Shown: positions 8,883 through 45,955 of the stretch, piece by piece
Numbering within the stretch: the first letter of the stretch is position 1
Layout: each line of letters begins with the position of its first letter
Source: a virus
Lineage: Duplodnaviria; Caudoviricetes
DNA: 64,000 nt
Direction: 5' to 3' (one strand)
Virus record (IMG/VR): IMGVR_UViG_3300010429_002123
The notes under the pieces: generated by a model
The model's database searches: none
The model's input: the letters and a program-made list of their open reading frames with translations, nothing else
Told to the model about the DNA's origin: nothing
Position numbers and translations under genes: made by a program

Positions 8883-9169
8883 ACATTGATAAAAATAAAA
8901 TAAGTGATAAATCCAGTCACTGACTCGAAGTTAAGTCTTTCTTAAGACTTTTTGAGTCAAAGGCTTAGAAAACTTTCAGTTTAGAGAGAGTGAGTAATTA
9001 AGCCAATCTAGCGGAGTTTCTAGAGAAACATGATTAGTTGGAAAGTACACGCCTTTCTAAGGAAACATATTTAGATGGAAAGGATAGAGAGTTTCCTTTG
9101 AAGAAAAGTTTCTAAAGGAACATGATTAGATGGAAAGTTTTAAAGGAGTAATTATAGTTAGGTGGAAAG
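8883..9169 (+). CRISPR. cassette 1: structured scaffold plus mini-array
   Basis: Scaffold 8883-9015; repeats 9016-9045, 9053-9082, 9108-9137, degenerate 9137-9169; spacers 7 and 25 nt; TGCTATAAT at 8867-8875. Confidence 0.85.
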
Positions 9170-9201
9170 ATAAGAAAAGGTAGGAAAAGAGGAAACAATT
9201 T

Positions 9202-9864
9202 TTGAAAGAAAGAATAAAACTTGTTCCCTGTGGGGTAGGGACGATTATTACTCTCCCACAGGAGTTAGAATCTTATTTTTTGGACTCTGCAAGGGAAGTG
9301 CGGAAAAAAGGCAAAATAAAAATTAAATTCGAGTTAACACCCCAGGCCAAAATCTTAGACATATATAACCTGCTTTATTACTACAGGTCTAAGAAGCAAC
9401 CCCTGCTTTACACTTTAACCCTTTTTGATGAGCTGTTTCTTCTGAAAATAGAAGAATGCGAGTATGGTTTTGTGTTGAGGGGGTCACCCGTAACTCTCAT
9501 TGTCCGTGGGTTACTGGGAAGAGCAGAGACATTTGATGAGAAGGAGTGTGTTATGGAAAACTTTAGAGAGTTTTTACCTAAAGACCTGACTATTCAGGAA
9601 GTAGTCAGAGAATTTCAAGGAAGATGTAACGCTGTAAGTTTCAAACTGAATAGAGAGATTCCAGGTACCATCTCTGTATTGGAAGAAAGATTTTCTGTAG
9701 AAAAAGGCTTTGGTTTAAAAAGAACTTTCTTCACGGGCAGTAATGGGGACGCTCCCCCCAAGAAAAAACCTCTTTATACGATTTCTGTCACCGTTCGGGA
9801 ACTCGCTGGAGCAGAAGGGGTTCCGATTCCTGAGATTTGCATAGAGGGACTGTCTGCCGGTTAA
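9202..9864 (+). CDS. hypothetical protein between cassettes 1 and 2
   Basis: 220-aa ORF with GAGG RBS; no certain motif. Confidence 0.6.
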   Translation: MKERIKLVPCGVGTIITLPQELESYFLDSAREVRKKGKIKIKFELTPQAKILDIYNLLYYYRSKKQPLLYTLTLFDELFLLKIEECEYGFVLRGSPVTLIVRGLLGRAETFDEKECVMENFREFLPKDLTIQEVVREFQGRCNAVSFKLNREIPGTISVLEERFSVEKGFGLKRTFFTGSNGDAPPKKKPLYTISVTVRELAGAEGVPIPEICIEGLSAG

Positions 9865-9904
9865 AGAAAGTTTCACAGACCGTTAAAAAGTTTTAAAAAT
9901 TGGC

Positions 9905-9933
9905 TTGACAATCTTTACTATTCGTAGTATGAT
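9905..9933 (+). promoter_or_regulatory. promoter for cassette 2 and the TnpB/Cas12-like gene
   Basis: TTGACA-17-TATGAT. Confidence 0.8.
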
Positions 9934-9943
9934 TATTTAAAGA

Positions 9944-10144
9944 ACACCAACGAAAACAAAAATAACCGATAAGTCCAGTCGGTGACTCGAAGTTAAGTCT
10001 TTCTTAAGACTTTTTGAGTCAAAGGCTTGCAAAGTTCTCGGTTTATAGAGAACGAGTAATCAAGCCAATCTAACGGGTTTCTAAAGAAACATGGTTAGAT
10101 GGAAAGATTTCATAATTTCTTTAGAAACGTGGTTAGTTGGAAAG
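9944..10144 (+). CRISPR. cassette 2: scaffold plus mini-array
   Basis: Repeats 10077-10106 and 10115-10144; 8-nt spacer. Confidence 0.85.
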
Positions 10145-10254
10145 AATGAGGGTTTGTTGGAGTTTTCGGAGAAAAGACTTTAAAACCCGGTTTTTCGGAA
10201 AGATGGGAAAAGTTTTAAGGTTCAAAAGTGAAAGAATTAATAGGAGGGAACGAC

Positions 10255-12552
10255 ATGATAGTTAGAAAAAGGAGAAAACTGAAGGACACTACGGAGGCGA
10301 AAGCTAAGAGGTCAGCCTCTGCCAAAAGGGCGAAAAGATATTCGGGACCGAAGTTCGCCTTTACTTTACCGCTTAAGGCTTGCAAATGGGAGAAAGACAT
10401 GGTATTTAAAAAGATAAACGGATACAGGCAAATGTATAATCACACTACTTTTGTAATATCTAAGTTATATCACGCCATGTGCCTCTCTTTACTGGAAGAC
10501 CAGGGTACTACCATTACAGACTCTGTCTTAAAAAGTATGAAAGGGCAGTTTGACAAGGCAAAAAGAGACTGTATAGAGAAGTATAAAGGACAGACCTACA
10601 CAAAACAGGAGTTCGCTTCTCTGCTCGAGTCCGAAGGGTTTAATGCGAAAGAAATAGAAAAAGCCATTCTCTGTTTTGCAAAAGAGAAGTTCAAAGAGAA
10701 AAAACTTGAACTAATAAAAGCTCAGAAAAACTTAAATAAGAAAAGTGCCATTTCCAACAAAATGAGTAATAAAACTGGGGGGAGCATCCTGGAAAAAACC
10801 GAGGAAGAAGAAGAGTATGAAGAGTTTTTAGAAAGCCTCGAAGAAGATGAAGACCCCACTACAGACTCTGACCCCGACTTAAAAGAGGCTCTTTCTGAGC
10901 CCGACGTCTGGGTAACCACAGACAAAGTCTACACAGGGGCGGAGAAGAAAACAGCTAAAGAGAACGCCCGGAAGGCAAGGGAGGAGCTCCAGAGAATAAA
11001 AGATGATTATGTCACTTTTCTTAAGTCGCACGGTCTTCCCACAGGTAATAAAAATAGCATAAACACAACACCCCCGGCAGAATTCAGAATTAAACACCCC
11101 CATTTGTATTATAATCTGCCTGGAAATGTTGTAGACACCATACTGGCCAGGGTGGAGTGTGCTCAGAAAAAGGTCTTTTACCAGGATGGTATGAACTTTA
11201 ATTATTACAGAAAAGACTTACGTAAGTCTTACCCCGCCAGAAAAGGTTCAGACCTTGCCATAGAACGGGACGCAAAAAATCCTCAGAAGTTTGTGCTCAG
11301 TGTGAGATTCGGGCACCATATTTCAAAAGAAAGAGAAAAACAGGGAGAAAAACAGGAAGAGTTTTTGAAACTTCCAATCGTAGCAGTAACCCCCTACGAC
11401 TTTGAGGTGCTGAACAGGTTGGAAACAGGTGTTTTTCAAGAGCACAGAATTCTGCGTAAGCAGGTGGGAAAAGAACTGAAGCTGTTTGTGCAGGTGGTTG
11501 TAAACGGAGAACCGCCTAAAAAACCCCAAAAGCTCGGAAAAGGCGTTGTAGGCATAGATATAGGAACACAAACGACAGGCTTTCATAGTGACACGGTAAC
11601 AAGATTAGTGGAACTGGCAGACACTCTTTACCCACAGGAAAAAGAATTCGTCTTCATAAAAAGAGCCCTCGACAGGTCGAGAAGAATGACCAACGTGACT
11701 AACTATAAGCCGGATAAAGAAGGAAGAAAAGGAAGAGGAGACGTAGCTGACAGAAAAGACAGAAAAGGGTGGATAAAGTCGAGATATTACAGGGAACTGC
11801 AGAGACTCCTGAGAAGTAATGAGCGTAAAAGAGCGAGAAAAAGAGAGCTTGCTCACTTCCTTTTAGCAAAAGAAATTGTGGCTCTCGGAGATACCTTTGT
11901 AATAGAAAAAGTCAACTGGAAGGGACTTCAAAGACGGGCAAAAAAGACAGAAAAGAACTCCAAAGGGAAGTTTAAAAAGAAAAAAAGGTTCGGTAAGAGT
12001 CTGGGAGAAAAAGCCCCGGCAAGTTTCGAGCAAATCCTTAAGAGAAAAGTTGAACAGGCCGGAGGAAAGTTCATCTACGTAAACACTCAGGCATATAGAG
12101 CCTCCCAGTATAATCATGTGACAGATACTTACACAAAAAGAGACCTGAGTACCCGCTGGGTTAACATAGGAGGCCACGTCGTTCAAAGAGATATGTATTC
12201 AGCCTTTTTGTTAAAAAACTTCAAAAACGAAGTGTCTCCTGACAGGAAAAAGTGTGAAGAAGACTTTGATGACTTTCTCACACGTCACAATGCGGAAGTT
12301 ACGCGTCTGAACCAGCTTAAACTAACAAAGGTCTTAAAAAGCTCGATGGGCATGAACCACATACCTTCTGCTATGGAGCTTGAATTAGCCAGGTTAGAAG
12401 GGTCTGTGGAAGAAGAAGTCCTTGACCGGATAGAAAGCTCTCTGGCCAGAGCAGAAGAGACTTACGGAGAAGAAATCCCGGAAGAAGTCCTCGAAGAGAT
12501 TTTTAACCCAAAACTCTCTATAGAAGAAATCTCCGGGATAGCCGCAGACTGA
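10255..12552 (+). CDS. large TnpB/Cas12-like RNA-guided RuvC nuclease
   Basis: RuvC-I VGIDIG, RuvC-II FVIEK, RuvC-III QRDMYSA; ATG 10255 after AGGAGG; flanked on both sides by scaffold/array cassettes. Confidence 0.9.
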   Translation: MIVRKRRKLKDTTEAKAKRSASAKRAKRYSGPKFAFTLPLKACKWEKDMVFKKINGYRQMYNHTTFVISKLYHAMCLSLLEDQGTTITDSVLKSMKGQFDKAKRDCIEKYKGQTYTKQEFASLLESEGFNAKEIEKAILCFAKEKFKEKKLELIKAQKNLNKKSAISNKMSNKTGGSILEKTEEEEEYEEFLESLEEDEDPTTDSDPDLKEALSEPDVWVTTDKVYTGAEKKTAKENARKAREELQRIKDDYVTFLKSHGLPTGNKNSINTTPPAEFRIKHPHLYYNLPGNVVDTILARVECAQKKVFYQDGMNFNYYRKDLRKSYPARKGSDLAIERDAKNPQKFVLSVRFGHHISKEREKQGEKQEEFLKLPIVAVTPYDFEVLNRLETGVFQEHRILRKQVGKELKLFVQVVVNGEPPKKPQKLGKGVVGIDIGTQTTGFHSDTVTRLVELADTLYPQEKEFVFIKRALDRSRRMTNVTNYKPDKEGRKGRGDVADRKDRKGWIKSRYYRELQRLLRSNERKRARKRELAHFLLAKEIVALGDTFVIEKVNWKGLQRRAKKTEKNSKGKFKKKKRFGKSLGEKAPASFEQILKRKVEQAGGKFIYVNTQAYRASQYNHVTDTYTKRDLSTRWVNIGGHVVQRDMYSAFLLKNFKNEVSPDRKKCEEDFDDFLTRHNAEVTRLNQLKLTKVLKSSMGMNHIPSAMELELARLEGSVEEEVLDRIESSLARAEETYGEEIPEEVLEEIFNPKLSIEEISGIAAD

Positions 12553-12614
12553 TTACCAGTAACCCGTGACTGAGTTGCCAAGACCAAAGTCACGGGACTT
12601 ACTCTGGTTAAAAT
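12553..12614. mobile_element. IS200/IS605-end-like hairpin remnant
   Basis: CCCGTGACT...AGTCACGGG stem; near-copy at 39755-39804. Confidence 0.5.
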
Positions 12615-12827
12615 GTAGACAAAAGATTAAAATAAGTGACAAATCCAGTCACTACCTTGAAGCTAAGTCTTAGAAAAGACTTTTTAAGGTAAGGCTTGGA
12701 AAGTTCTCGGTTTATAGAGAATGGGTAATCAAGCCAAACTAACAGGGTTCTAAGGAATTACGGTTAGATGGAAAGCTCTAATCCTTCTCTTGAAAGTGTT
12801 TCTAAAGAAACATGGTTAGATGGAAAG
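12612..12827 (+). CRISPR. cassette 3: scaffold plus mini-array
   Basis: Repeats 12746-12775 and 12798-12827; 22-nt spacer. Confidence 0.85.
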
Positions 12828-12871
12828 ATGATAGATTTTAATGTAGAGAGTAGAAGTGAGGTGGAGTAAGA

Positions 12872-13321
12872 GTGGGAGAATCTAGTGAGAACTTTGGAAA
12901 TATGGTAAAACTATACAGGCTCGCTGAAGACGTGATGGAAAAAGCTGAGAAAAAACATGAAGAGATAAAAGAGAAAAGAAAAGCGAAAAGAGCTTTAAGA
13001 GGCGTGCAGAAAAAAGCGGAACCCAAAAAAACTTATAAAGACCTTTTAGAAACCTTTAATCAGATGGTTAAAGATAAGTTTCAGATTATTCCCCCTCTCT
13101 GCGGGAAAGACGCCAAGTTTTCTAAAGAGCTCATAGACCACTTCGGTTACGAGTTAACTGAAAGGGTTTTTTTATGGACTCTTAAAGAATGGAAAACCAT
13201 ACAGAGAAAGTTCAGGATAGAGGGTCTTCCCACAGTGGGAATTATTTACGGATTTAATAACTATTTGTTTTCTGAGGTACAGAAGCAGGAAAAACTCTCA
13301 GAAACAGAGAATGAATTTTAA
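12872..13321 (+). CDS. hypothetical protein
   Basis: 149-aa ORF with GGAG RBS, upstream of the loader/helicase genes. Confidence 0.6.
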   Translation: MGESSENFGNMVKLYRLAEDVMEKAEKKHEEIKEKRKAKRALRGVQKKAEPKKTYKDLLETFNQMVKDKFQIIPPLCGKDAKFSKELIDHFGYELTERVFLWTLKEWKTIQRKFRIEGLPTVGIIYGFNNYLFSEVQKQEKLSETENEF

Positions 13322-13676
13322 TAAAAAGAAAGCAGGAAAAGGAGGTGATTACAGTGGAAATAATGCTGAATAAGATGACAGACCAGGAAAAGACAGAGTT
13401 TTACAAAGAGAAAATTCTAGCCTGGGGCAAAAAGCACGGAGGAGTTTTCTCTATCCCCTACTGCTTGCGAAAGAAAGAAGACAGCGAGCTACACGAGACA
13501 TGGGTAACTTTTTTGACAGAAAACGCCCCCCGGATTGTAAAGACAAGACAGATGGAATTTACTCCGAGAGCCCTGAAAGAACTTCAAAAAACAAACAAAA
13601 TAAAAAAACTTCCGAGTTCAACAAGCTTTAGAAAGTATGCCCTTGTATAACCGGGGAAAATAACCAGAGAGGAGGC

Positions 13677-14336
13677 GTGGAGATACAAATAAAAAGTGGA
13701 AAAATTAAAATTCAAAGTAAAGACTTTCTGGTCAGAGCCAGAATTCCTGAGAGGTTCTGGAAAGTGAAACTGAACCTTATTCCAGAGTCCCCATATAAAG
13801 ATACTCTTAACAACTATATAGAAAACTTCGAGGACTTCTACACACGAGGTGTAGGTCTTTTTATATACTCGAAAGACAATTCCTGTGGAAAGACTTCTGC
13901 AGGGGTTATTCTGTTAAAAGCGGGTATAAGTAAGGGTTTAACCTGTCTTTTTGCTGGCTCTGATGAAGTCATGGACAGTAAAGTGAGAAAAATAAGATTT
14001 GACGAAGACGAAGACCTTATTTCTCGCATGCACAGAGTGAATATACTTCTTATTGACGACATCGACAAAGAATACAGAGGAACCAGCGGTTTTTCTGAAA
14101 ATCAACTCGAGGCTCTTATACGAAAAAGGTCACAACAGCTAAAAGTGACCATCGTAACCAGTAACAGAACACCTGCAGAAATAAAAGAAATCTACAGTTC
14201 TGCCCTTTCAGAACTTATGAAAGAGTGTATGTACCCACTCAAGATTCCGGGACAGAGTGAGGGAGGAAAAAACTGGAGAGCAGAAGAGGCTCGTTTTTTA
14301 GCAGAAAAACTTCGAGTTCCCCCTAAAGACTACTGA
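13677..14336 (+). CDS. DnaC/IstB-like ATPase (helicase loader)
   Basis: IPERF, Walker A NSCGKT, Walker B LLIDD, TIVTSN. Confidence 0.85.
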   Translation: MEIQIKSGKIKIQSKDFLVRARIPERFWKVKLNLIPESPYKDTLNNYIENFEDFYTRGVGLFIYSKDNSCGKTSAGVILLKAGISKGLTCLFAGSDEVMDSKVRKIRFDEDEDLISRMHRVNILLIDDIDKEYRGTSGFSENQLEALIRKRSQQLKVTIVTSNRTPAEIKEIYSSALSELMKECMYPLKIPGQSEGGKNWRAEEARFLAEKLRVPPKDY

Positions 14337-14712
14337 AAAGCTACTTAGTAAACTAGAGGAGGAAAACATTAAATGATGACTACAGTAAAACGCAAAATTG
14401 TCTCTCTCCGGGGAGCGAAAGCAGAACTTATAGAAGGCCGTGTGTACGACCTCAGACCCGGACAAATAAAATATGAAATTCGACACAGTAAACAAGACCC
14501 AACTGTTCCCAGCTCTCTTGAAATTCGAGTAAAAGGAAACTTCTACGGAACCCTCCTGACTTCTGTCCACATAGGTGGGGTTTACTCGGAACTCTCAGCA
14601 GAAGAACAAAAAATCCTCTCTTTTGATTAGCCCAGCGTTCTTAACTATTTAACTACTTTGGTCAGTTTGGGTGCCTCCGGCTGGCCTACTATAAGGGAAG
14701 GAACTGTCGTGC

Positions 14713-17193: not shown

Positions 17194-17223
17194 AGAAAAG
17201 TTAGCCCTTTTTTAAAAAAAGGC

Positions 17224-17252
17224 TTGACATAATTGTTATACCGTGATAGTAT
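17224..17252 (+). promoter_or_regulatory. promoter
   Basis: TTGACA-17-TAGTAT. Confidence 0.7.
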
Positions 17253-17281
17253 GAAAAGAAAGATACAAAAGGAGACAGATA

Positions 17282-17752
17282 ATGGAAAGGTTAAAAGTTT
17301 TTATAGGAGAGGACAACTGTTCCTACCCTGTAACGGGAGTAACCTTCACTCCCAAAAAAGAGGCAGAAACAAAAGAAGAACTGATAGCTACAGTAAGCTA
17401 TCTGAAAGAAGGAAACGAAATCACCAGGGCAATTAATCCGAGAGTTGACAGTGTGAGGCTCGGAACAGGTGTTTGTGGTTCGGACGGCCAGGAAATTGCA
17501 GACGGAGACATAGTAAGGGTTGAAAAAACCTTAGATGGGAGAACTCTGGCCTCTCCTGAGTTTTATACTGTCACGTATTTTGCCCATAAGTTTCTTGCCC
17601 GTTCTGTAAAAACAGGACAGCACACCGTTTTTTCGGAGTGGTTACCTCAGGCAACTCACTCCCGGGTTGTGGGTTACGCCGGAAGAGTCTGTTCTAAATG
17701 CATGGCTTCTGAATTAACCTGCAGGTGTAGCAATAGCTACATGTTTAGATGA
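17282..17752 (+). CDS. YopX-like protein
   Basis: TGVCGSDGQEIADGDIV...VVG resembles YopX TG..D.NG.EIYEGDIV. Confidence 0.6.
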   Translation: MERLKVFIGEDNCSYPVTGVTFTPKKEAETKEELIATVSYLKEGNEITRAINPRVDSVRLGTGVCGSDGQEIADGDIVRVEKTLDGRTLASPEFYTVTYFAHKFLARSVKTGQHTVFSEWLPQATHSRVVGYAGRVCSKCMASELTCRCSNSYMFR

Positions 17753-17754
17753 TA

Positions 17755-18022
17755 ACATCGACAAAAGTTTACAATATGTGATAAATCCAGTCATAGTCCC
17801 GAAGTTAACTTCTTTTTAGAAGTTTTTAGGACAAGGCTTACAAAGTTTTCAGTTTATAGAAAACGAGTCAATAAGCCAAACTAACGGGTTTCTTGGAAAA
17901 CATGGTTAGATGGAAAGAAGAGCCTTGTTTCTGAAGAAGCATGGTTAGATGGAAAGAAATTACGGAGTCTTTGTTCATTTCGCTGATACACGGTTTCCGA
18001 GGAAACATGGTTAGATGGAAAG
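17755..18022 (+). CRISPR. cassette 4: scaffold plus mini-array
   Basis: Repeats 17888-17917, 17927-17956, 17993-18022; spacers 9 and 36 nt. Confidence 0.9.
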
Positions 18023-18222: not shown

Positions 18223-18636
18223 ATGTATATGCTTATAGAGCACTTAGAAACACTCTACGAGAACCAGAGGGCACACGAAACTGAGATGTTCCTCCACCCC
18301 CTGAGGGGGAAAATCGTAGGTAAAGAAGAAAAAGATGGGAAAAAAGTCTACCAGATAGACTTTTTTGATGTGGGAATTATAAATAAAACTCATGAAGAGA
18401 TAGAAGACGATATGATAATAGAATTTGAGGACTTCAGTCTCACCATCGACGAAGACTATGGGATAGGTGAGCACGTTCTGGGAGAAATAATCCGTGACTG
18501 TGGCTGTCCCCCGTCAAACGGGGAGACAAAAGGACAGTTTTATATTCAGGTGATAAGAATCGGAGGAAAACCTTCCGACGTAGAGGAAGAGGAGTTAAAA
18601 AGCTCAGTAGACATCGACGAAACTAAAAATAAGTGA
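18223..18636 (+). CDS. hypothetical protein (stop codon lies inside cassette 5)
   Basis: GAGGAGG RBS; 3' end overlaps the scaffold 5' motif. Confidence 0.6.
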   Translation: MYMLIEHLETLYENQRAHETEMFLHPLRGKIVGKEEKDGKKVYQIDFFDVGIINKTHEEIEDDMIIEFEDFSLTIDEDYGIGEHVLGEIIRDCGCPPSNGETKGQFYIQVIRIGGKPSDVEEEELKSSVDIDETKNK

Positions 18637-18938
18637 TAAATCCAGTCACCACCTCGGAGTTAACTTCTCTTTAGAAGTTTCTGAGGTAAGGCTTAGAAAG
18701 TTCTTGGTTTATAAAGAACGAGTAATCAAGCTAAGCTAACGGGTTTCTAAAGAAACATGGTTAGATGGAAAGTGAAATTCTATACTACCCTGAAGAATTC
18801 CTTTAGAAGTTTCTAAGGAAGCATGGTTAGATGGAAAGGTTTCTAAGAAAACATGGTTAGTTGGAAAGGCGATTGTGATAGAAGCGACGTGGTATGTGGT
18901 TAGTAAGGGTTTCTGAGGAAATGTGGGTGGAGAAAAAG
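18611..18938 (+). CRISPR. cassette 5: scaffold plus mini-array
   Basis: Repeats 18743-18772, 18809-18838, 18839-18868, degenerate 18909-18938; spacers 36, 0 and 40 nt. Confidence 0.9.
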
Positions 18939-22371: not shown

Positions 22372-22434
22372 AGTAAATAAACCCTGTTCCCAAGACAGGG
22401 TTTAAGAACGCTTTTAATTAAAAATCTTTTCATA

Positions 22435-22675
22435 GCATCGACGGAAAGTTAAAAATAAACGACAAATCCAGTCGTAGTCCTGAAGTTAACTTCTTTTTAG
22501 AAGTTTTTAGGACAAGGCTTAGAAAGTTTTCAGTGTGTTAGTCACTTAAAGAAAACGAGTAATTAAGCCAGTCTAACGGGTTTCTAAAGAAACATGGTTA
22601 GTTGGAAAGGATGGTAAAAATTCAATAATTGAATCCACCTCATAAATTTCTAAAGAAACATGGTTAGTTGGAAAG
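22435..22675 (+). CRISPR. cassette 6: scaffold plus mini-array
   Basis: Repeats 22580-22609 and 22646-22675; 36-nt spacer. Confidence 0.9.
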
Positions 22676-33302: not shown

Positions 33303-33815
33303 ATGTTAAATCAAAACGGAAAGCAGGCTGTGGAGGAAATAATAAGGATTTTAAGAGAGACTGGTGAGGGACTGGAGACCCCTCACCAACAGATACTCAT
33401 TAAGCAGGCCGAAAGACTCGAAACTATGCTCCCGGCCATGATAAGACCTATGCCCCCGCAAAAAGAGTTGCTTGCGAAGCGTTTTCCTGAGGCAGAACAC
33501 AAGACGAGAAAAGGTGCTCGTGGGAAACAGCTCACCTATGTAGAAACTGTAAATTACATAGACAGGTTAAATGAAATATTCGGCCTGCACTGGAGCTGGG
33601 AACTGACTGAGCAGGGTGCTGACGAAGTAGGTGTGTGGAGTCGTGGAAGGCTCACTATCGAGATAGACGGGAAAACGGTAGTTAAAGAGGCATACGGCGG
33701 GAACGACAAAAATGGAGAAATCGGGGACGCCCTGAAAGGTGCTTCTTCTGACGCCCTCAAAAAAGCCTGTTCACTGCTTGGTATGGGTCTTTACATGTAT
33801 AGAGATAAAAAGTAA
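33303..33815 (+). CDS. Rad52/Sak-like ssDNA annealing protein
   Basis: LTYV...IDRLNEIFG..W...KGASSDALKKA...GMGLYMY. Confidence 0.9.
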   Translation: MLNQNGKQAVEEIIRILRETGEGLETPHQQILIKQAERLETMLPAMIRPMPPQKELLAKRFPEAEHKTRKGARGKQLTYVETVNYIDRLNEIFGLHWSWELTEQGADEVGVWSRGRLTIEIDGKTVVKEAYGGNDKNGEIGDALKGASSDALKKACSLLGMGLYMYRDKK

Positions 33816-36151: not shown

Positions 36152-36258
36152 ATTTCCCCAAAAGGTAAGCAAATTTTTAAAAAAAGGCTTGCCACAATCC
36201 GAAAAATGTAGTACAATAGTACACGAAAGAACAACACTCATAGAACGGAGGTAATTTT

Positions 36259-37674: not shown

Positions 37675-38496
37675 AGACTGAAAAAAGTGAAAGAGCTAAG
37701 ATAAAAGGAAAAGAAGAGAGCCAGGAACACAGACCGGAAATCCTGAGCTTGAACGTTCCGGTCGTTTCATTCCGAAAAAGAGGTGATTTTATGCCAAAAT
37801 CTTTGCCTATGTTACAGGTAGGGACTGTCGTTCACGTAAAGAGAGAAATAGCCTTCCGAGGAGGAGATGTCATAGGTCCTGTGTATACGGAACATCAGAG
37901 TCCAAGAACGGGAGTGATAGCTGGGTATACAGTAAAAAGAGCAGGAAGATTTGTTCAAAAAAAGCCACCGAAAGATGCTAAATTCCTCCATGAGATTCTC
38001 ACAGATAGACAAGTTTTCAAAGTTAGAGATACTTACAAAGTCTATATCATAAAATATGCCCTGTGGGCTAAAGACGTCTATGCAGAAGAAGATGACCTCA
38101 TTGTCCTATATCGCCCGAAATACTTCGTCACTGAGGGTGACTTCCAAAGAGAAGTCTATTTTTTACTGCCCAGGCAGAATAAAACTCGAGGAAAAAGAGA
38201 AGACTTATAATGACAGAAGAGCAGAGATTACGCATAATAACTGAAGCCGGAGACGAAGCGGTGAACCTTCTGTATACAGTAACCCTTCCCGGAAAAGAGA
38301 CCTTTCTAAAAGCCCACTTACGAAACGGAGACTTAATAGTCATGATGTCAAAAAGAGAAAATCCCAGGCTTTTCGACGCAATAATGCTCTGGTGGGAAAA
38401 AAGAGATGCGAAGAAAACAAGACTTCAGTTTAGAGGTAAGGCCACTGTAAAGGAATTGTTAGAAAAATTCGGAGAATTAAGAAGGAGGATAGACTA

Positions 38497-39090
38497 ATGT
38501 TTGATTTAGTAAAAACTTGTGAGATGACGAGGGATAACATAGTAAAGCTTGAATGCGTAAAAAACCAGATAAAAACCATGTCTACTTCTGAGCTGGCACA
38601 TGGCTTTCAAGTCATAAACCCCGTGGAGAAAGGGATAGAACAGATATGTGACTTAGTAAAAGAAGAGTTAAAACAAAGAATGCAGGCTGACCACACAGGA
38701 GCAATAACCCAGGACGAAAAAGGTCATCTATACTTTACCCTGAAGCAGGGAAAGTTAAAAGCGGAAAAAAGGGAGAAAAAAGACTTTGACACCGGAATGG
38801 CCACAACTATTCTGGAAAAGAAAGGCTTATTAAAAGCCTGCCAGAGTGTAAGTTATGAAATACTTGACCCCGACACTTTCGCCCAGACTCTCTCAGAAGT
38901 GTTGGCGATTCTTCCCGAAGCTGAAAAAAAGACCTATGAAGCTAAATTAATGCAGACTCTTCGAGAAAAAAGGAAGTTATCCGAGGCTCTGATAGAAAGT
39001 GCGGTTGAAAAAGGTCAACTTTCTCTCGACGAAGTAGAAGAGATGCACTCTGTCAGGAAAACATACGCTTTAAAAATTGTGAAAGGATAG
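38497..39090 (+). CDS. hypothetical protein
   Basis: 197-aa ORF coupled to the upstream gene (TAATG). Confidence 0.6.
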   Translation: MFDLVKTCEMTRDNIVKLECVKNQIKTMSTSELAHGFQVINPVEKGIEQICDLVKEELKQRMQADHTGAITQDEKGHLYFTLKQGKLKAEKREKKDFDTGMATTILEKKGLLKACQSVSYEILDPDTFAQTLSEVLAILPEAEKKTYEAKLMQTLREKRKLSEALIESAVEKGQLSLDEVEEMHSVRKTYALKIVKG

Positions 39091-39754
39091 TTAAATATTC
39101 TCTTGACAACACGGTCGTTGTATGTTATACTGCAAATAATGTAAAAAAGTCTTTATTGGAGAGGTTTTATGCTGATTGAACTCGAAGAAGGCGTGAAAAG
39201 AGCACAAAGTATATATTTCAGGGACTGGTATGATACTCATAAAGATTCCTGGAACTCTGAAAGAAAAGAGAAAAGACAGAACCCCTCTTTCAAAGAACAG
39301 GAGAGAAAGAGAAGGATTCGAATGAAGTGGGGAAATTATATTCCGCCGGGAGACATCGACCCTACCCCACAGATAGAGACTTTTAAAAATCACACTGTTA
39401 CACTTTCTCTACCTGTCTCCAGAACAGAAGCCATTGATTTCCTTTGTGTTCCTATGAAGATTGTGACGAACAGCCTGGGTGTGTGCCACAGGACTTACCT
39501 ATACTGGGTCAGCAAAGGTCTGATAACAAATACAATGTTTAAGCAGGGAACTGAAAACTTTATGCCCCTTGAAATTGCAGAAGCCTTCCTCTTTAATCTG
39601 AAGTATAAAAGCTACCCCTACAAAGACATAAGAAACTGGGTGTTTCTAAGAAAAGTTAAACTTGCACAGGAAGATTTTTTAAAAAAATTAAAACCCTTTG
39701 GCCTATCCCAGAAGGTCTTCCAAAGGAAGACAGAGAAAAAGAAATAAGAAGAAC

Positions 39755-39804
39755 TTACGTCAACAACCCACGACTGAAGTCACGGGAATTACCCTGGTTA
39801 AAAT
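39755..39804. mobile_element. solo IS200/IS605-end-like hairpin
   Basis: GTCAACAACCCACGACTGAAGTCACGGG; 3' 28 nt nearly identical to 12587-12614. Confidence 0.55.
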
Positions 39805-40201
39805 AAGATTTAAAATAAGATTTTGAACAAGAAGGAGTGGTAAGAGTGGACGAAACCGTCACAAAAGATACACAGACAGCTACGATGCAGACACGGGAAG
39901 GGTATAAAAAGGTTACTAAAATGTACACCTCAAAAGGCAAAGTCATCAGAGAAGACAGCCCCTTACAGGAGACTATCTTTGTTCGAGACTTCTTAGGAAC
40001 CTCAGGAAAAGTTTCCATTAACCTGGGAATGACTCTCTCCCTCGGAGAAGGCACCTATGAATTCGTAAGGGTTGACGTTGGGGTTGAACTTCCCTGTTAC
40101 CCGGAAGAACTAAAAGAAGCAAAAACCACCGCATACGAATTCGCAAAAAGTGAGTTATTTGCGAATGCTCAGGAAGTGAGAGAAAAAATACCAAAGTAAA
40201 G

Positions 40202-40510
40202 ACATCGACGGAAAGTTAAAATACGTGACAAATCCAGTCACTGTCTCGGAGTTAACTTCTTTTTAGAAGTTTCTGAGACAAGGCTTAGAAAGTTTTCAGT
40301 GAGTCAGCCACTTAAAGAAAACGAGTAATTAAGCCAATCTAGCTGGTTTCCGAGGAAACATGGTTAGAGGGAAAGACGATAGGGGTGTTTTTGTCAACTT
40401 TTCCGAAGCTCAGTTTCTTAGGGAACATGTTTAGATGGAAAGTACGCCTCATACCTTTCACCTCGACTTCTCTTGAAAGTGTTTCTAAGGAAACATGGTT
40501 AGTTGAAAAG
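40202..40510 (+). CRISPR. cassette 7: scaffold plus mini-array
   Basis: Repeats 40346-40375, 40413-40442, 40481-40510; spacers 37 and 38 nt. Confidence 0.9.
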
Positions 40511-40548
40511 GGAAAGGGAAAGCGTTCAGATGGAAAGGTGGAAAAGTA

Positions 40549-41088
40549 ATGAAAAGAGAAGAGAACGGAAAAATAAAGAAAAAACACGTGCCTGCTAAAG
40601 TATTCCCTCCAGGAGAGTTCCTTAAGGAAGAACTGGAAGAGAGAAACTGGACAAAGGAAGAACTCTCTCAAAAAACAGGGATACCCCAGCAGGTAATAGA
40701 AGACATATTAAATCACAAAGGTGAAGTGACAGAGGAAATAGCTTCTCTTCTCGCTAGAGCTCTGGACGAACCGGAAGATTACTGGGTATGTTTGAGCAGA
40801 AACTACTTCGAGAGAAAAAAAGTCATTGCCCTCGAAGAGTCAAATCCTTGTAGATGCGGGGGAAGGGTCAGACATACAGGAAAGGTATATTATACCGCCC
40901 CGGCTTATTATGAAATGAAGTGTGATGAGTGCGGGAGAATAAAAGACATAAAAGAGGCTCCCAGTATTCCTGTAATAGAGTGTACAGAGGAAGAACTCTT
41001 CAAAAGACATCCTGAGGTGAGAGAACTTTATGAGAAGTTTCCTCATTTACGAAGAAGTGAGTCCGAAAAGACATCGACGGAAAGTTAA
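40549..41088 (+). CDS. HigA-like HTH plus Zn ribbon
   Basis: VFPPGEFLKEELEERNWT...YW; CRCG...CDECG. Confidence 0.75.
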   Translation: MKREENGKIKKKHVPAKVFPPGEFLKEELEERNWTKEELSQKTGIPQQVIEDILNHKGEVTEEIASLLARALDEPEDYWVCLSRNYFERKKVIALEESNPCRCGGRVRHTGKVYYTAPAYYEMKCDECGRIKDIKEAPSIPVIECTEEELFKRHPEVRELYEKFPHLRRSESEKTSTES

Positions 41089-41347
41089 AATAAACGACAA
41101 ATCCAGTCGTAGACTCGAAGTTAACTTCTTTTTAGAGGTTTTTGAGTCGAGGGCTTAGAAATCTTTCAGTTTATAGAAAGCAAGTAATCAAGCCCGGCTA
41201 ACGGGTTTCTGAAGAAACATAGTTAGTTGGAAAGTTAATTGGAATACCCATTTCAGACAGTTTCGAGAGCACGGTTTCTGAAGAAACATGATTAGTTGGA
41301 AAGAAAAAGAAGGTCAAGGTTCTGAAGAAACATGATTAGTTGGAAAA
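41071..41347 (+). CRISPR. cassette 8: scaffold plus mini-array
   Basis: Repeats 41205-41234, 41274-41303, 41318-41347; spacers 39 and 14 nt. Confidence 0.9.
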
Positions 41348-41392
41348 TAAAGAGTTAATAGAGAAATTACATAATAAAAAAGGAGAGAGTGT

Positions 41393-44053
41393 ATGAGCAG
41401 AAAAAAAGTATCCCTGGAGGAAACTCTGGCCGCTATTAACAAGAAGTTTGGAAAAGGAACTATAATGCCTGTGAGTGAAGCAAAAAGCCTGAATTACATC
41501 AGAATTCCCACAGGTATTTTTAGTTTAGACGTTGCTGTAGGGGCTGGTTATGGTCTTCCGAGGGGAAGAGTTTCTCTTATAATAGGAGAAAAGTCCACAG
41601 GGAAAACGACTATATGCATGAAGACGATTGCTACCTGGCAGAAATACTGTAGATTCTGCAATACGGAGATAAAAGACCGTATAATAGAAATAGAACCGAA
41701 GGAAGAAATAAAACCCGAAGTAAAAGAAGAGGTAAAACCTGCAGTAAAGGGAGGAAAAAACACCCCTGAACCGGTAAAAGGGAAAAAACCTCCCGAGCCA
41801 CCAAAAGGAAAGAAACCTCCCGAACCTCCGAAAGAAGAGAAAAAGAAAGTTCAAAAAATTGTCACTAAGTGTGAATGTGGTAAAAACAAACGTATGGTCT
41901 GTGTGTATCTCGACGGAGAGGGAACTTATGACCCTCTATGGGCAAGTCATCATGGCGTAGACAATACCTCAGTAATAATGTTACAGCCTGAGTTTGCGGA
42001 ACAGTGTGCTGACGTTGTAGAAGAGCTGATACGCACTGGGGATGTTGACTTAATCATCGTTGACAGTATCGCAGCCCTCGTACCTGCCTCTGAAATAGAA
42101 GCTAGTGCAGAAGACCAGCAAATGGGAACCCACGCGAAAATGGTGAATAGAATGTGCCTGGAAGGAAACCAAAGGGTAATAAACGAGCTTACTGGAGAAC
42201 TTATCCGAGTTAAAGACTTAAAGGCTGGAGTTACGCTTACTTCCGTGGGAGAAGACAATAAAATAAGAAAGAACGTGGTTACAGAAGTGTTTAAAACAGG
42301 TAGAAAAGACTGCCTGAGGATAAACAACACACTGGTTCTCACAAAAGACCACTTAGTTTTTACAGACTCTGGCTGGGTAGAGGCTGGTAAACTCACCCGT
42401 AATCATCTTATCGCAAGACCAAAAAACCTTCCAGTTTTTACCACAGGAACCTCGGACTTTTTTAATGTGGAAGCCCGTCTCCTCGGTTATGCCCTCTCTG
42501 CCGAAGGTAACCCGGAAGCCTGGAAACGCGGGGGTAAGCACGAAGTAGAAGATAAAAGAAGAGCCATAGAGTTCTTTGGAGAAAGACTTCCTCTTCTGAC
42601 CTTTGAAGACTACAGTCAAATACTTTCTTTAGACCTGGGAAAAGCTCCGCATTTGAGAAGGTATAGAGACTTGTTTATAAAACATAACCTGAGTAAAGAG
42701 ACTCTCGGGATTATTCCTAAGGCCATCTTTGGGGGAGATATAACCCAGATAAAAAACTTTATAGAAGCCATGTGGACAGGAGGAGGTCTGGTCAACCCCA
42801 CAGAAAAAACGTTGACTTACTTAACCGTTTCTGAGACCCTGGCTTATCAGTTAAGACATCTCTTATTAAGGTTTGGAGTATGGGCGTCACTCGGTGTAAG
42901 CGAGTTCTCCTCAAGGTCTTACCCCTATGGGAAAAGATACCTTCTTACCGTAGCGGGTAAACAAAATGTGAAGAGATTTTATGAAGCCTTCTCTCTCTTA
43001 GACGAGAAGCAAGACAGGTTAAAAAGAATAGTAGAAAGATGGAAAAATCAATCTGAATTACCTATTCCCGCACAGGAGCAATGCACTAAAAAAGAGGTGG
43101 AAACCTTAATAGCTCTCTTAAAGAAGAAGAAAATATCTGGAACAGATGTTTGTTGCTTCATAGGTCTTTGCCGGAATGCTTACCCGGAGCACAAGGTCTA
43201 CACCTATGAGATATTAAAAAACCTCGTAGTTAAGTTTGGTCTTCAGGAGTTAATTCCTATGCTTGAATCTGACCTCTGGTACGAGCCTATTATAAATATA
43301 GAAGAATATGGGACTGAAGAGGTCTATGACATTTCCATGAAAAATGAAGAAAACTTCCTGTGCGAAGAGTATGTGGTGCATAACTGCAGGGCTCTCAGTT
43401 CCTCTATGAACAGTCTTGGGATAGAGTGCGAGACAAAACCCCATGTAATTCTGATTAACCAGAAGAGAGACAAGCTGGGCTTTTTTGGAGGTACTACCAT
43501 ACCAGGTGGAAAAGGCCAGTGGTACACAGCAGGCATAATAGTAGACATGAGAACCCCCCATAAAATCGGAGAAAACGGAAAGTTAGACCCAAAACAAGAC
43601 AGCAGTGACTATTACAAGACCGTAGAAACAGTAGGCTCCCTTCATAACTTTGAGGTTGTGAAAAACAAGACTTATATCCCTTTTAAACGTGGGTCTTTCC
43701 GCATCTACGGCCAGACTTGTAATAATGAAAGCCTTTCTGTCAGAAAGGGAGAAATAAACACGGAAGAACAAATATTACGTGTAGGTTTAAATACTGGAGC
43801 TATTTTGCTGAGAGGAACCTCCTATGTATTTCAAGACGTTATCTTTGGGATAGGAAAAGAGAAGGCTCTACAGGCGTTAAAAAGTAACCCGGAGTTACAG
43901 GAGAAAATAAAGGTTGTTATTCTGGAAAATATAAAAAGTGAGCTGGCTTCAAGCAGGGATTTATTTGAGGCTAACCAGGACATGCCCGACGGAATAGACT
44001 CCCTGTCTTTTGAACTTATGTCTGAAGAGCCCACAGAAGACAGTGGAGAGTGA
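41393..44053 (+). CDS. recA: RecA-family recombinase with intein
   Basis: IPTG..SLD.A.G, GEKSTGKTT, VDSIAALVP..E, INQ.R, PGG, KNK. Confidence 0.92.
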   Translation: MSRKKVSLEETLAAINKKFGKGTIMPVSEAKSLNYIRIPTGIFSLDVAVGAGYGLPRGRVSLIIGEKSTGKTTICMKTIATWQKYCRFCNTEIKDRIIEIEPKEEIKPEVKEEVKPAVKGGKNTPEPVKGKKPPEPPKGKKPPEPPKEEKKKVQKIVTKCECGKNKRMVCVYLDGEGTYDPLWASHHGVDNTSVIMLQPEFAEQCADVVEELIRTGDVDLIIVDSIAALVPASEIEASAEDQQMGTHAKMVNRMCLEGNQRVINELTGELIRVKDLKAGVTLTSVGEDNKIRKNVVTEVFKTGRKDCLRINNTLVLTKDHLVFTDSGWVEAGKLTRNHLIARPKNLPVFTTGTSDFFNVEARLLGYALSAEGNPEAWKRGGKHEVEDKRRAIEFFGERLPLLTFEDYSQILSLDLGKAPHLRRYRDLFIKHNLSKETLGIIPKAIFGGDITQIKNFIEAMWTGGGLVNPTEKTLTYLTVSETLAYQLRHLLLRFGVWASLGVSEFSSRSYPYGKRYLLTVAGKQNVKRFYEAFSLLDEKQDRLKRIVERWKNQSELPIPAQEQCTKKEVETLIALLKKKKISGTDVCCFIGLCRNAYPEHKVYTYEILKNLVVKFGLQELIPMLESDLWYEPIINIEEYGTEEVYDISMKNEENFLCEEYVVHNCRALSSSMNSLGIECETKPHVILINQKRDKLGFFGGTTIPGGKGQWYTAGIIVDMRTPHKIGENGKLDPKQDSSDYYKTVETVGSLHNFEVVKNKTYIPFKRGSFRIYGQTCNNESLSVRKGEINTEEQILRVGLNTGAILLRGTSYVFQDVIFGIGKEKALQALKSNPELQEKIKVVILENIKSELASSRDLFEANQDMPDGIDSLSFELMSEEPTEDSGE
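42155..43384 (+). mobile_element. intein in RecA (410 aa, degenerate LAGLIDADG)
   Basis: M|CLEGN...TKDH...VYDI...VVHN|C. Confidence 0.9.
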
Positions 44054-44539
44054 AGGGGGTAACTAAATGGAAATAGTAAACTTTAAACGTGTGAGAATAA
44101 AAGAAGAGGGAAGAGACAAGCCTAAATACATAGGTTTTATTTGTGACTCTTACTTTATCTCATCACGAATAGTGGAAAAACATATGTACCGAGGTGGAGT
44201 AGGAACCATAGAAGAATGCAGAGAAGAAGGTTTGGCAAGCTGGGGATTAGACAGAAAAGTAGCCGAAGGTCTTGAGGTCAATGGTGTGAAAGAAATTCTT
44301 TTAGTCACAGACAAAGGCTACTTTAAAATAGGTGTAGACACTTTTCTTGACGAAAGTTTTTCAAAAACCTTTCATAACTTTCGAGAGCAGTTCTTCGCCC
44401 GAGAAAAGTTTTTCTCAAAAGCAGAGGGGGACGAGACTTCTGAACAGTTTGTAGCTCTGTTTAGACCCGAAAGAAAAGACTTGGAACTTCTCCTTGACCG
44501 TATAAAAGAGCTATCCTTCAGAGGACAGGAGGACTTGTC

Positions 44540-45070
44540 TTGAAAACAGAAGGACAAAAATTGAGTAAAAAGCAGGAGAAGCAAACAGAAAAAGCTCTAA
44601 AAAAACACGGTTTTGTTAACCCTACCAGAACTCCCGGAAGTGGGAACAAATCTTTAAAGGGAGACGTCATTACAGACACACTGATGATAGAGTGTAAAAT
44701 CACGTCTAAAGAGCAGATAGGAATAAAGAGGGATTACATAACGAAACTCATAGAGGAGAGTATAGAAGCAGAAAAAGAGCCTGTTTTTGAGTTCGGCTTT
44801 TCCGGTATTAGTAATTTTGTGGACTTTACATGGATGGCTGTCCCAAAAAGCCGTATGGAAGAGCTTTTTAAAGAAGAAAAGACTACCCCCTTTGTAGTAA
44901 AGGGCAGAGGAACTAAACAGGTATCTATAAAGTATGAGGTGTTAAAAACCCTCCTTACGCAAGCACAGGAGCCATTGTTAGAGTTCACTTTTTCCGGTCT
45001 AGAACCCTGGTGGGCAGTTCCGAGAGAGCAACTATTAAAACTCTTATTCTCAGAAAGGGGGGAGCGGTAA
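44540..45070 (+). CDS. PD-(D/E)XK Holliday-junction-resolvase-like nuclease
   Basis: E...PGSG...GDV...IECK. Confidence 0.75.
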   Translation: MKTEGQKLSKKQEKQTEKALKKHGFVNPTRTPGSGNKSLKGDVITDTLMIECKITSKEQIGIKRDYITKLIEESIEAEKEPVFEFGFSGISNFVDFTWMAVPKSRMEELFKEEKTTPFVVKGRGTKQVSIKYEVLKTLLTQAQEPLLEFTFSGLEPWWAVPREQLLKLLFSERGER

Positions 45071-45557
45071 GTGGAAGACCTCTATGACAACTCCCTCTCT
45101 CTGGGGGAAAAGGTTCTTTACTTCTCTCTGGGAGTAATAACCTGTTGTATATCTGTAAGTATAGTCAAACGGTTGTATAAGGTGACAAAAAAGAGGAAGA
45201 TATATGGGGCTTATCGTTAGAGAAGACCTGGTTCAGGACTTAAAAAACACAGAACAGTTATTGGACAAGACCCTTTCTTTAGCCCGAACGCTTATACATA
45301 AGTATGAACAACCGGGTATGGGGCTGGGGGAAGAACTCCCTTACGAGTTCTGGAACTTGCTCAAAGAAGTAGACTGGACAACGACGTGGTTTCTTGAACA
45401 CGCCTTTGACAAAGAGGAAACCCCTCTTTACACAGACGGCTTACTTCTTTTTGAATCCTGTTGTCTGGGACTGGAAAAACATATGAGAGATACGAAAAAA
45501 CTCTGTGGGATATTTAAGATGATGGCCACACTCTTTCGAGATAAGACCTTAACTATA

Positions 45558-45955
45558 ACATCGACAGAAAGTTAAAATAAGCGACAAATCCAGTCGCAGT
45601 CCTGAAGTTAAGTCTTTTTTAAGACTTTTTGGGACAGGGCTTAGAAAACTTTCAGTTTATAGAAAGTGAGTAATCAAGCCAAACTAACGGGTTTCTAAAG
45701 GAACATGGTTAGATGGAAAGTATGTGGAGACCGTGCACTACATCGACCGGCTTAACGTTTCTAAAGAAACATGGTTAGATGGAAAGCATGGGCAACTTAC
45801 ATTAGTAGCTTCATTGGCAACAAGGTTTCTAAAGAAACATGGTTAGATGGAAAGGTTACTATGTTTCTAAGGAAACATGGTTAGTTGGAAAGATTCGAAA
45901 TAGTCTATATCTACTTTTTTATTGTGTTTTTGAATAAACATGGTTAGTTGGAAAG
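45558..45955 (+). CRISPR. cassette 9: scaffold plus five-repeat array
   Basis: Repeats start at 45691, 45757, 45825, 45863 and 45926; spacers 36, 38, 8 and 33 nt. Confidence 0.93.

Follow-up and report, generated by a model that had tools for sequence, protein, structure and literature searches.

A predicted TnpB-derived nuclease of a phage accompanied by multiplied and dispersed scaffold-plus-mini-array cassettes

The evolution of Cas12 nucleases from TnpB is explained by the splitting of the omegaRNA into tracrRNA (short for trans-activating CRISPR RNA) and crRNA (CRISPR RNA; CRISPR, short palindromic repeats that are clustered and regularly interspaced). To our knowledge, every natural example on record pairs a single scaffold gene with a single array. 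TranC systems arose several times from IS605 and IS607 TnpBs according to the accounts of Jin et al. (Cell 2025) given in PMC13565253 and PMC13639567, and further TranC clades, including the phage-borne CauTranC9 with an array that targets phages, are described in a preprint (10.64898/2026.03.27.714800). The stretch of DNA analyzed here (the window; 64,000 nt of the Caudoviricetes record IMGVR_UViG_3300010429_002123) encodes a predicted TnpB/Cas12-fold nuclease (the effector) together with nine cassettes in which a homologous noncoding scaffold is joined to a short repeat-spacer array. With a probability of about 0.7, the locus is best explained as an RNA-guided nuclease system derived from TnpB and carried by a phage, of the TranC or early type V kind, whose guide-RNA genes were multiplied and scattered.

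A repeat search of the window identified 25 copies of a 30-nt unit (consensus GTTTCTAAAGAAACATGGTTAGATGGAAAG) at nine sites, and at each site the repeats are preceded by a homologous element of ~135 nt (~69% mean column identity in the alignment, with paired substitutions). A covariance model (R1) built from the nine window scaffolds scores 175-200 bits at these nine sites, all on the plus strand, and nothing else in the window is comparable. The initial annotation of the window had described nine plus-strand cassettes, each with a homologous element of ~130-145 nt and two to five copies of a 30-nt repeat with unique spacers. R1 places all nine within 3 nt of the starts given there, the repeat counts agree (3, 2, 2, 3, 3 plus 1 degenerate, 2, 3, 3, and 5 copies in cassettes 1-9, with 0-5 mismatches in 30), and the element is a structured RNA of ~135 nt, extended to 146 nt by an 11-nt insertion in cassettes 6 and 7. 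The uniqueness of the spacers holds for those of ordinary length: the 18 window intervals (7, 25, 8, 22, 9, 36, 36, 0, 40, 36, 37, 38, 39, 14, 36, 38, 8, and 33 nt) comprise eleven of ordinary CRISPR-spacer length and seven stubs, and the spacers of cassette 3 (12776-12797) and cassette 7 (40443-40480) share their last 14 nt (CTTCTCTTGAAAGT), which indicates recombination, exchange or duplication between cassettes. The total of nine is correct for the window only. The window corresponds to bases 23699-87698, read on the minus strand, in an IMG/VR virus record of 183,650 bp (completeness estimated at 78%), and R1 finds 13 full-length scaffolds and one fragment in the whole record; the four full copies outside the window carry 1-4 repeats each and one of them is on the opposite strand. 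The cassettes are spread over >150 kb and are embedded in operons.

Three of the window cassettes adjoin the effector gene. Cassette 1 (8880-9137, R1 174.9 bits) consists of a scaffold (8880-9015) and repeats starting at 9016, 9053, and 9108 with spacers of 7 and 25 nt; near 9150-9170 there is a degenerate repeat tail. Cassette 2 (9941-10144, 188.3 bits; scaffold 9941-10076, repeats at 10077 and 10115, spacer of 8 nt) occupies the 5' leader of the effector gene, between promoter and start codon. Cassette 3 (12610-12827, 181.9 bits; scaffold 12610-12745, repeats at 12746 and 12798, spacer of 22 nt) starts 58 nt past the effector stop codon, which is also the placement of the scaffold in a sister system described below (contig L013) and of TnpB omegaRNAs. 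The remaining six are cassette 4 (17752-18022, 184.1 bits; repeats at 17888, 17927, and 17993, spacers of 9 and 36 nt), cassette 5 (18608-18938, 188.7 bits; repeats at 18743, 18809, and 18839 and a degenerate one at 18909, spacers of 36, 0, and 40 nt), cassette 6 (22432-22675, 185.6 bits; 11-nt insertion in the stem-3 loop, repeats at 22580 and 22646, spacer of 36 nt), cassette 7 (40199-40510, 187.1 bits; the same insertion as in cassette 6, repeats at 40346, 40413, and 40481, spacers of 37 and 38 nt), cassette 8 (41068-41347, 185.9 bits; repeats at 41205, 41274, and 41318, spacers of 39 and 14 nt), and cassette 9 (45555-45955, 199.8 bits; repeats at 45691, 45757, 45825, 45863, and 45926, spacers of 36, 38, 8, and 33 nt). 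In cassettes 8 and 9 the 5' end of the scaffold supplies the stop codon of the preceding open reading frame (ORF; 40549-41088 and 45204-45575, respectively). Cassette 8 is flanked by a helix-turn-helix gene and by an intein-containing recA; the latter (41393-44053, plus strand), directly 3' of the cassette, is split by an intein with a LAGLIDADG homing endonuclease (Pfam RecA, Intein_splicing, LAGLIDADG_3).

A degenerate 30-nt repeat (GTAGCAATAGCTACATGTTTAGATGATAAC, 17727-17756) lies directly upstream of scaffold 4, overlapping the end of ORF 17282-17752, and the conserved 5' end of the scaffold (ACATCGAC-GGAAAG) resembles a shortened repeat tail. These two observations hint that the cassettes may have been multiplied by recombination at the repeats. 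The scaffold fragment contains stems 1-3 only and lies between a tRNA-like 3' end and tRNA-Glu in a cluster of eight tRNA genes outside the window (L045, G000:C1:162408-165578, minus strand; Leu, Met, Leu, Ala, Glu, Leu, Ser, Asp), with which cassettes are interleaved. This guide-less copy was considered as an intact tracrRNA gene and rejected, as it is truncated and contains neither anti-repeat nor repeat.

The structure of the scaffold was analyzed with RNAalifold on the 13 paralogs, which gave six helices with 43 pairs. Overall, 98.4% of the 559 cells are paired, and 16 of the 43 pairs are changed on both sides (67 cells). No column shuffle out of 500 matched the observed pairing and double-change values, and in a control with the 3' partners slid by 1-3 columns the pairing dropped to 34-51% and the double changes to 0-4 pairs. 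These results strongly indicate selection on the structure of the scaffold RNA in every copy, since the copies differ by structure-preserving compensatory changes. The sixth helix is formed by the 3'-terminal CTAAC of the scaffold and a GTTAG in the 3' half of the first repeat, and encloses the repeat's own GTTTC-NNNN-GAAAC hairpin (nt 1-14), leaving a 16-nt tail. The predicted layout is that of an anti-repeat:repeat duplex with a loop cap, which amounts to a natural single guide followed on the 3' side by the spacer. The sixth helix is nearly invariant within the phage and therefore receives little covariation support from the paralogs. An AAAUCCA loop is likewise invariant and could pair, as judged by eye, with UGGA of the repeat tail as a pseudoknot; as all positions involved are invariant, no covariation signal is possible there. 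No Rfam family matches the scaffold.

The effector gene (10255-12552, plus strand) encodes 765 aa from the called ATG start at 10255, or 774 aa if a GTG at 10228 is used. The protein matches the NCBIfam model guided_TnpB (NF040570; E=1.9e-14, 53.8 bits) and the transposase family phrog_506 (E=5e-27). No Pfam model matches it, OrfB_IS605 and OrfB_Zn_ribbon included, nor was there a direct sequence match in the PDB, where a profile search gave distant matches to 9J09 (E=3e-8), LaTranC (0.016), and ISDra2 TnpB (0.02). The RuvC triad (D435/E551/D646) is invariant in an alignment of 50 sequences (the effector and 49 relatives), the motifs GIDIG, IEKVN, and QRDMYSAF are present in the effector translation, and the Zn-ribbon cysteines are missing from the effector and from its entire subfamily. 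The effector contains a helical, K/E-rich insertion of ~150 aa (residues ~76-223) and an acidic C-terminal tail; as the N-terminal FxLTLPL strand is common to its relatives, the extra length is assigned to this internal insertion and the tail. An AlphaFold2 model (predicted local distance difference test, 78.6; predicted template modeling score, 0.70) matched Cas12f, ISFba1 TnpB, Cas12m, Cas12p, LaTranC, and ISDra2 TnpB with a Foldseek probability of 1.00 at 12-16% identity (template modeling score of 0.68 for ISFba1 TnpB, normalized to the target). The model shows the bilobed fold of the superfamily, with a WED/REC and a RuvC/TNB lobe. An exhaustive HMMER search of 1.84 billion representatives returned 1,534 TnpB-like proteins and no relative of >50% identity; among the matches listed, most are ~450-570 aa long (range 242-658) and are 33-47% identical, mostly over residues ~380-710. 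In a quick tree (with P0002 on a long branch) the effector and its sister P0077 are nested inside the TnpB-like family. Fold, intact triad, and tree position agree with the initial assignment as a TnpB/Cas12-like nuclease, and the effector is predicted to be a TnpB/Cas12-fold RuvC nuclease of a zinc-finger-less IS200/IS605 TnpB lineage, in which it appears to form a deep and so far unique branch.

The effector is the sole TnpB-family match in the window, as had been noted initially, although not in the record: a second TnpB-family ORF of 207 aa lies on the minus strand ~71 kb before the window start (G000:C1:158583-159206, equal to L017 1456-2079). It consists solely of that half of a canonical TnpB which contains RuvC and the Zn ribbon (GIDLG, AIEHL, CSRCG...CEKCG, DRDLNASINL; 125 bits to positions 197-387 of NF040570) and is preceded by a 158-aa multi-CxxC ORF. 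The 207-aa protein is an unlikely user of the cassettes because the RNA-/DNA-binding lobe is missing. For an IscB, the record yielded a weak HNH-type match, located in the window, and nothing further.

The proximity of effector and cassettes is by itself weak evidence for a functional link, and the loci of relatives of the effector were therefore examined. The sister protein P0077 can be aligned for the greater part of its length (34% identity across ~500 aa; support of 96 in the Shimodaira-Hasegawa-like approximate likelihood ratio test) and is encoded on an independent, phage-like contig (L013) next to dNK, Thy1, and PolA exonuclease genes. On this contig, R1 matches end to end (E about 0.005) on the 3' side of the gene, overlapping its last 22 nt, and the scaffold region is followed, at the contig end, by two copies of GTTTCCGAGGAAACTAGGATGAGTGGAAAG at a spacing of 68 nt. 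The repeat has the same architecture as in the phage but a changed tail, and the anti-repeat just upstream of it (CGUCUUAGU) is complementary to this changed tail (ACUAGGAUG). The anti-repeat:repeat duplex thus appears to be conserved between the two systems through changes on both sides. The presence of a homologous scaffold with a related array at the 3' end of a sister gene ties the effector to the cassettes by co-occurrence, and the covariance model and co-occurrence check that the initial annotation had proposed have yielded a covarying RNA and a sister locus that contains both partners. Three further proteins from the same region of the tree have repeats on the 3' side of their genes: P0093 (seven repeats of ~32 nt), P0071 (three repeats of 30 nt), and P0066 (four repeats of 37 nt, the first preceded at a distance of 5 nt by a 10-bp anti-repeat that lies inside the 3' end of the ORF). 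A few relatives likewise have the scaffold fused to repeat 1. Among the homologs there are also ordinary genes of bacterial insertion sequences, one of which adjoins a Y1 transposase. With default filters R1 found no match at the loci of bacterial TnpB relatives; with the filters off, the stem-2 GUUAA hairpin recurs just 3' of a bacterial tnpB on L007 (local E=0.0046), and it is visible on L010. A descent of the scaffold from the omegaRNA of the family is weakly supported by these similarities.

Two spacers could be traced to phage genes. The first spacer of cassette 8 (41235-41273, plus strand) is identical in its repeat-proximal 20 nt to two IMG/VR viral contigs (L058 10880-10899 and L059 293-312). 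The other 19 nt differ and are homologous only as protein in the target frame (VLSKLSE vs VYSEIFE); the spacer peptide VLSKLSEMGIPI corresponds to VYSEIFEMGIPI, residues 109-120 of a 184-aa ORF. Chance matches of 20 nt are estimated at ~0.2 per query in a collection of such size, and the in-frame extension over 19 nt makes homology of the spacer to the viral gene likely. The 5' flank of the L058 protospacer is GCTTT. TnpB and Cas12f read 16-20 nt of the guide; a virus of the L058 type would be a perfect target if the enzyme does the same. The target ORF (L058 10687-11241, minus strand) is located near an Erf-like annealing-protein (recombinase) gene, and the L058 virus is otherwise almost unrelated to the phage, with a single short region matched by tblastx. 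The first spacer of cassette 9 (45721-45756, plus strand) encodes YVETVHYIDRLN, and the Rad52/Rad22-family gene of the phage (33303-33815, plus strand; PF04098, E=4.3e-13) encodes YVETVNYIDRLN at 33537-33572. The two are identical at 25 of 36 nt (shuffle maximum 23) and their peptides reach a BLOSUM score of 58 (shuffle maximum 35). With 11 mismatches the phage's own gene is not itself the target, and the spacer was evidently taken from a Rad52 ortholog of a related phage, as judged from the sequences. It has the sense orientation, so that the guide could pair with DNA and not with mRNA. A near-identical self-match of the spacers was not found in the phage's own DNA, a search of the spacers against GenBank phages gave nothing better than E=0.3, and in IMG/VR neither a Rad52 pattern with degenerate codons nor three of the four 20-nt seeds taken from spacers had a match. 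The spacers appear to fit a targeting of rival phages, one of the two possibilities raised initially; the other, targeting of the host, is without support.

Cassettes 1 and 2 have promoters of their own: a sigma-70-like promoter at 9905-9933 precedes cassette 2 (TTGACA-17-TATGAT, 11/12) and an extended -10 promoter (TGCTATAAT, ~8868-8876, identified by eye) precedes cassette 1, with the predicted start at the first conserved scaffold base in both. Cassettes 4-9 have neither a promoter of their own nor a terminator after them and lie within units driven by a conserved family of phage promoters (e.g., 17224, 21936, and 39103; cassette 7 is downstream of the promoter at 39103-39131). Plus-strand members of this family were noted at 4795, 5399, 8329, 17197, 21903, 30786, 33211, 36161, 36767, 58387, and 63110; the layout is an A/T-rich UP-like TTTTTACAAAAAG, TATTGACA, 17 nt, and (G)TGCTATAAT, and it marks the units that hold most cassettes. 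An exact CATCGA(C/T) is present at the 5' boundary of cassettes 4-9 and of three of the four full copies outside the window, and absent from that of cassettes 1-3; it is possibly a processing signal, to judge by its position. Of the words sampled from an early stretch of 10 kb, 94% are contained in a metatranscriptomic library available as contigs; this shows presence only. A higher word depth of the cassette bins and of one joint contig (136 vs ~5-12) was considered as evidence of expression or processing and rejected, because expression cannot be ranked by the depth of contigs made of repeated sequence and a carry-over of DNA is possible.

No cas1, cas2, cas6, or Y1 tnpA (PF01797) gene was found in the whole 183.6-kb record, which extends the absence reported for the window, covers ~78% of the genome (the missing part may hold such genes), and leaves aside IS607-type serine tnpA genes, which were not searched for. 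The canonical type V layout, with cas1, cas2, and a single array beside the effector, is not present; the arrays are dispersed. A transposon left end or target-site motif was not visible, although no search for ends was made.

A mechanism that would connect these findings is as follows. Scaffold, repeat 1, and first spacer would form one omegaRNA-like natural single guide with the guide at its 3' end, and the 30-nt repeat would be a duplicated copy of the terminal module of the omegaRNA. If so, the downstream repeat-spacer units would need a scaffold in trans and would act as crRNAs with a scaffold from one of the many copies. Transcription of cassettes 1 and 2, and probably of 3, would start at promoters of their own, and the others would be cut from polycistronic transcripts of early and replication genes, perhaps at the CATCGAC of their 5' boundary. 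The ribonucleoprotein would cleave the DNA of competing phages beside a 5' target-adjacent motif (TAM; the sole real protospacer is preceded by GCTTT), and the multiplication of whole cassettes would enlarge the guide set of a system without adaptation genes of its own. A more specific and tentative version, for which the odds are clearly below even, is a half-split stage of the guide RNA made modular: the first guide would act in cis and the later ones in trans, differently timed operons would spread the supply, and new modules would arise by duplication or recombination of cassettes without Cas1-Cas2. If true, this would be a distinct viral way to build an RNA-guided arsenal against competitors.

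Several observations weigh against the proposed nuclease system. The guided_TnpB score of the effector (53.8 bits) is below the curated cutoff of 100, and the 207-aa RuvC protein, 1.1 kb downstream of the upstream cassette cluster, is a possible partner. Seven of the 18 window repeat intervals (0-14 nt) are too short for guides, and the first spacers of the three cassettes that adjoin the effector measure just 7, 8, and 22 nt; part of the cassette set may have decayed or have another role. Only 2 of 17 full-length spacers have a traceable origin, and one matches a real virus, over 20 of its 39 nt. The anti-repeat duplex in cis is short (five contiguous pairs plus two) and nearly invariant within the phage, its support coming mainly from the contigs L013 and L032. 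The binding of cassette RNAs by the effector and the cutting of DNA are inferred, as are RNA processing, the TAM, and the use of scaffolds in trans, and the release of a trans scaffold's anti-repeat from its own repeat 1 is an unexplained step.

Three other explanations were considered. The cassettes might mainly be cis-regulatory or RNA-processing elements of operons, with the scaffold as a protein-binding leader and the repeats and spacers as decaying remnants; examples would be an autoregulation of the nuclease via cassette 2 in its 5' untranslated region or the segmentation of polycistronic mRNAs. Such a role would agree with window cassettes that are co-oriented with the genes, lie between ORFs, and lack terminators after them, with the missing promoters of cassettes 4-9, with the location of cassette 2 between promoter and effector start codon, and with the many spacers truncated to 0-25 nt. 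It is nevertheless unlikely: repeats with 0-5 mismatches in 30 are too well kept for decaying remnants, the window intervals of ordinary length (33-40 nt) carry unique sequences, two spacers come from foreign phage genes, and the sister system has the classical gene-scaffold-array layout. The compensatory changes that show selection on the RNA in every copy also speak against a purely selfish spread of the cassettes as non-autonomous elements derived from the right end (omegaRNA) of IS200/IS605 elements and moved by a transposase in trans or by TnpB-assisted homing. The homology boundaries are indeed sharp (5' at ~ACATCGAC, 3' at the last repeat), cassettes lie at gene ends and sometimes supply the stop codon, a scaffold fragment is found among tRNA genes, and the effector family includes active IS605 elements. 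However, all copies but one are co-oriented with transcription, the record contains no Y1 transposase, and neither a counterpart of the left end nor a target-site motif can be seen (no search for ends was made). Mobility of this kind, which is given a low probability as the whole explanation, would account for the dispersal and not for the function, and it can coexist with a guide function.

The least probable of the three is that the arrays serve a CRISPR system of the host, as mini-arrays or RNA anti-CRISPR decoys whose repeat is loaded by a host Cas6/Cascade or Csm/Cmr complex and whose spacers are added by the host Cas1-Cas2, with the TnpB-like gene as a passenger. The geometry of 30 + 36 nt and the GGAAAG end of the repeat are class 1-like, the 3' end of the repeat (AUGGAAAG) resembles the class 1 handle AUUGAAAG, the phage record has no adaptation genes, and there are documented cases of mini-arrays in viruses that turn host Cas proteins against related viruses (PMC11656645). 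A hairpin at nt 1-14 followed by a 16-nt tail is, however, unlike a Cas6 substrate, the tail pairs with a covarying scaffold and keeps this pairing through sequence change in L013, and scaffold plus repeat co-occur with the nuclease family in independent contigs. Furthermore, the pattern GTTTCNNNNGAAACNNGGNNNNNTGGAAAG forms no array in 185,579 prokaryotic species genomes (GTDB), in IMG/VR, or in JGI metagenomes, in a scan for an exact 19-base pattern that covers both known repeat variants and that a diverged host repeat would escape. There were eight isolated single matches in the species genomes, where ~4 are expected by chance (an estimate), and isolated single matches only in the JGI metagenomes; neither the exact consensus repeat nor the pattern shared with L013 matched in IMG/VR. 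The GTDB and JGI single matches were rejected as chance; the one on L031, with a weak model score, is inside a tail-fibre-like ORF. A use of host Cas1-Cas2 for the uptake of spacers is possible on its own, because the phage is without cas1, cas2, and cas6 and the spacers are uniform near 36 nt.

The phage originates from digester or sludge metagenomes, and no DNA similarity to GenBank phages was found. Other assemblies encode the identical effector protein on contigs that are 216,837 and 233,925 bp long, so that the phage genome is probably ~220-230 kb in size. Over 19 kb that include cassettes 1-5, a second assembly of the phage (L015) shows 100% identity and is therefore uninformative about spacer turnover. 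The first two genes of the window (141-1846, plus strand) are Gad1-like (PF25705) and Thg1-like (PF04446, tRNA-His guanylyltransferase family) according to precomputed Pfam matches on L015; an anti-defence-type and a tRNA-repair-type gene are thus part of the same early region. Other repeats in the window are a perfect 23-nt tandem repeat (TCTACTCCACAAGTAGAACCCTT) of ~5 copies at 3247-3361, whose copy number differs from L015, a 9-nt tandem repeat (CAGGATACT/CAGTATACT) of ~8 copies at 48855-48933, and three GAAAAGGATTTTCGTTATCAC-like repeats of 21 nt at 57788-57859 with a fourth copy at 63206.

Returning to the proposed RNA-guided nuclease system, its comparison with known systems supports the initial view of an intermediate between TnpB and type V, an idea that has already been published as TranC. 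As far as the available accounts of TranC go, the phage locus resembles it in a TnpB-lineage effector nested among transposon TnpBs, in short arrays (TranC medians of 4.5-5 repeats), in the lack of dedicated adaptation genes nearby, in a guide RNA derived from an omegaRNA or right-end element RNA (reRNA; here inferred), and in that some TranC systems are phage-encoded and target phages. It differs in that TranC, in the same accounts, has one tracrRNA gene beside one array, whereas the phage has at least 13 scaffolds, each fused in cis to its own mini-array, and in its effector of 765 aa (TranC, ~300-600 aa; 10.1101/2025.09.28.678669). LaTranC, the sole TranC in the PDB and the sole one compared, shows marginal profile similarity (E=0.016). 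The anatomy of the cassettes would offer both forms of guide, the reRNA-type single guide and the split tracrRNA plus crRNA.

With IS200/IS605 TnpBs (ISDra2, 8H1J/8EXA; ISFba1, 8IAZ) the system shares the fold, the RuvC triad, and the guide 3' of the scaffold; the scaffold of the sister locus overlaps the 3' end of the gene, and the closest homologs include a tnpA-adjacent TnpB. Unlike in these elements, a Y1 tnpA is absent, most guides are foreign spacers between repeats and not flanking DNA, the effector has a ~150-aa insertion and no Zn-ribbon cysteines, and the scaffold is unlinked and multiplied (12 full copies beyond cassette 3) in place of a single omegaRNA at the gene end. Cas12f and Cas12p are the best structural matches (Foldseek E of 1e-12 to 1e-9) and likewise place an anti-repeat:repeat duplex beside the guide, and Cas12p, the 'Cas12 hacker' (PDB 9JFS), is also of phage origin; however, identity is just 12-16% and these systems have one tracrRNA and one array (for Cas12p, a 185-nt tracrRNA and a 37-nt repeat, with thioredoxin as cofactor; 10.1101/2025.01.20.633832). 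The mini-arrays and solitary repeat units carried by viruses (PMC11656645) are comparable as short viral arrays with spacers from related viruses, and such spacers suggest a possible competition between viruses. There, the host repeat is copied and host Cas proteins are needed, whereas the phage cassettes have a dedicated scaffold and a candidate effector of their own, and the scans made found no host counterpart of the repeat.

The locus would add a case of phage-against-phage RNA-guided warfare directed at replication and recombination genes. If functional, it would be a test bed for the coexistence of cis (omegaRNA-like) and trans (tracr-like) guide use, would show how a guide set can be widened without adaptation genes, and would be the source of a native single-guide design for a nuclease that is new and deeply branching. 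No description of scaffold-array units multiplied and dispersed in a genome was found in the literature, and it is this multiplication and dispersal of cis-fused units within phage operons that is new here. Compared with the splitting of an omegaRNA into tracrRNA and crRNA, the phage appears to have arrived at a different solution, in which the scaffold stays joined to repeat 1, the terminal module would have been duplicated into a mini-array, and the entire unit was copied at least 13 times.

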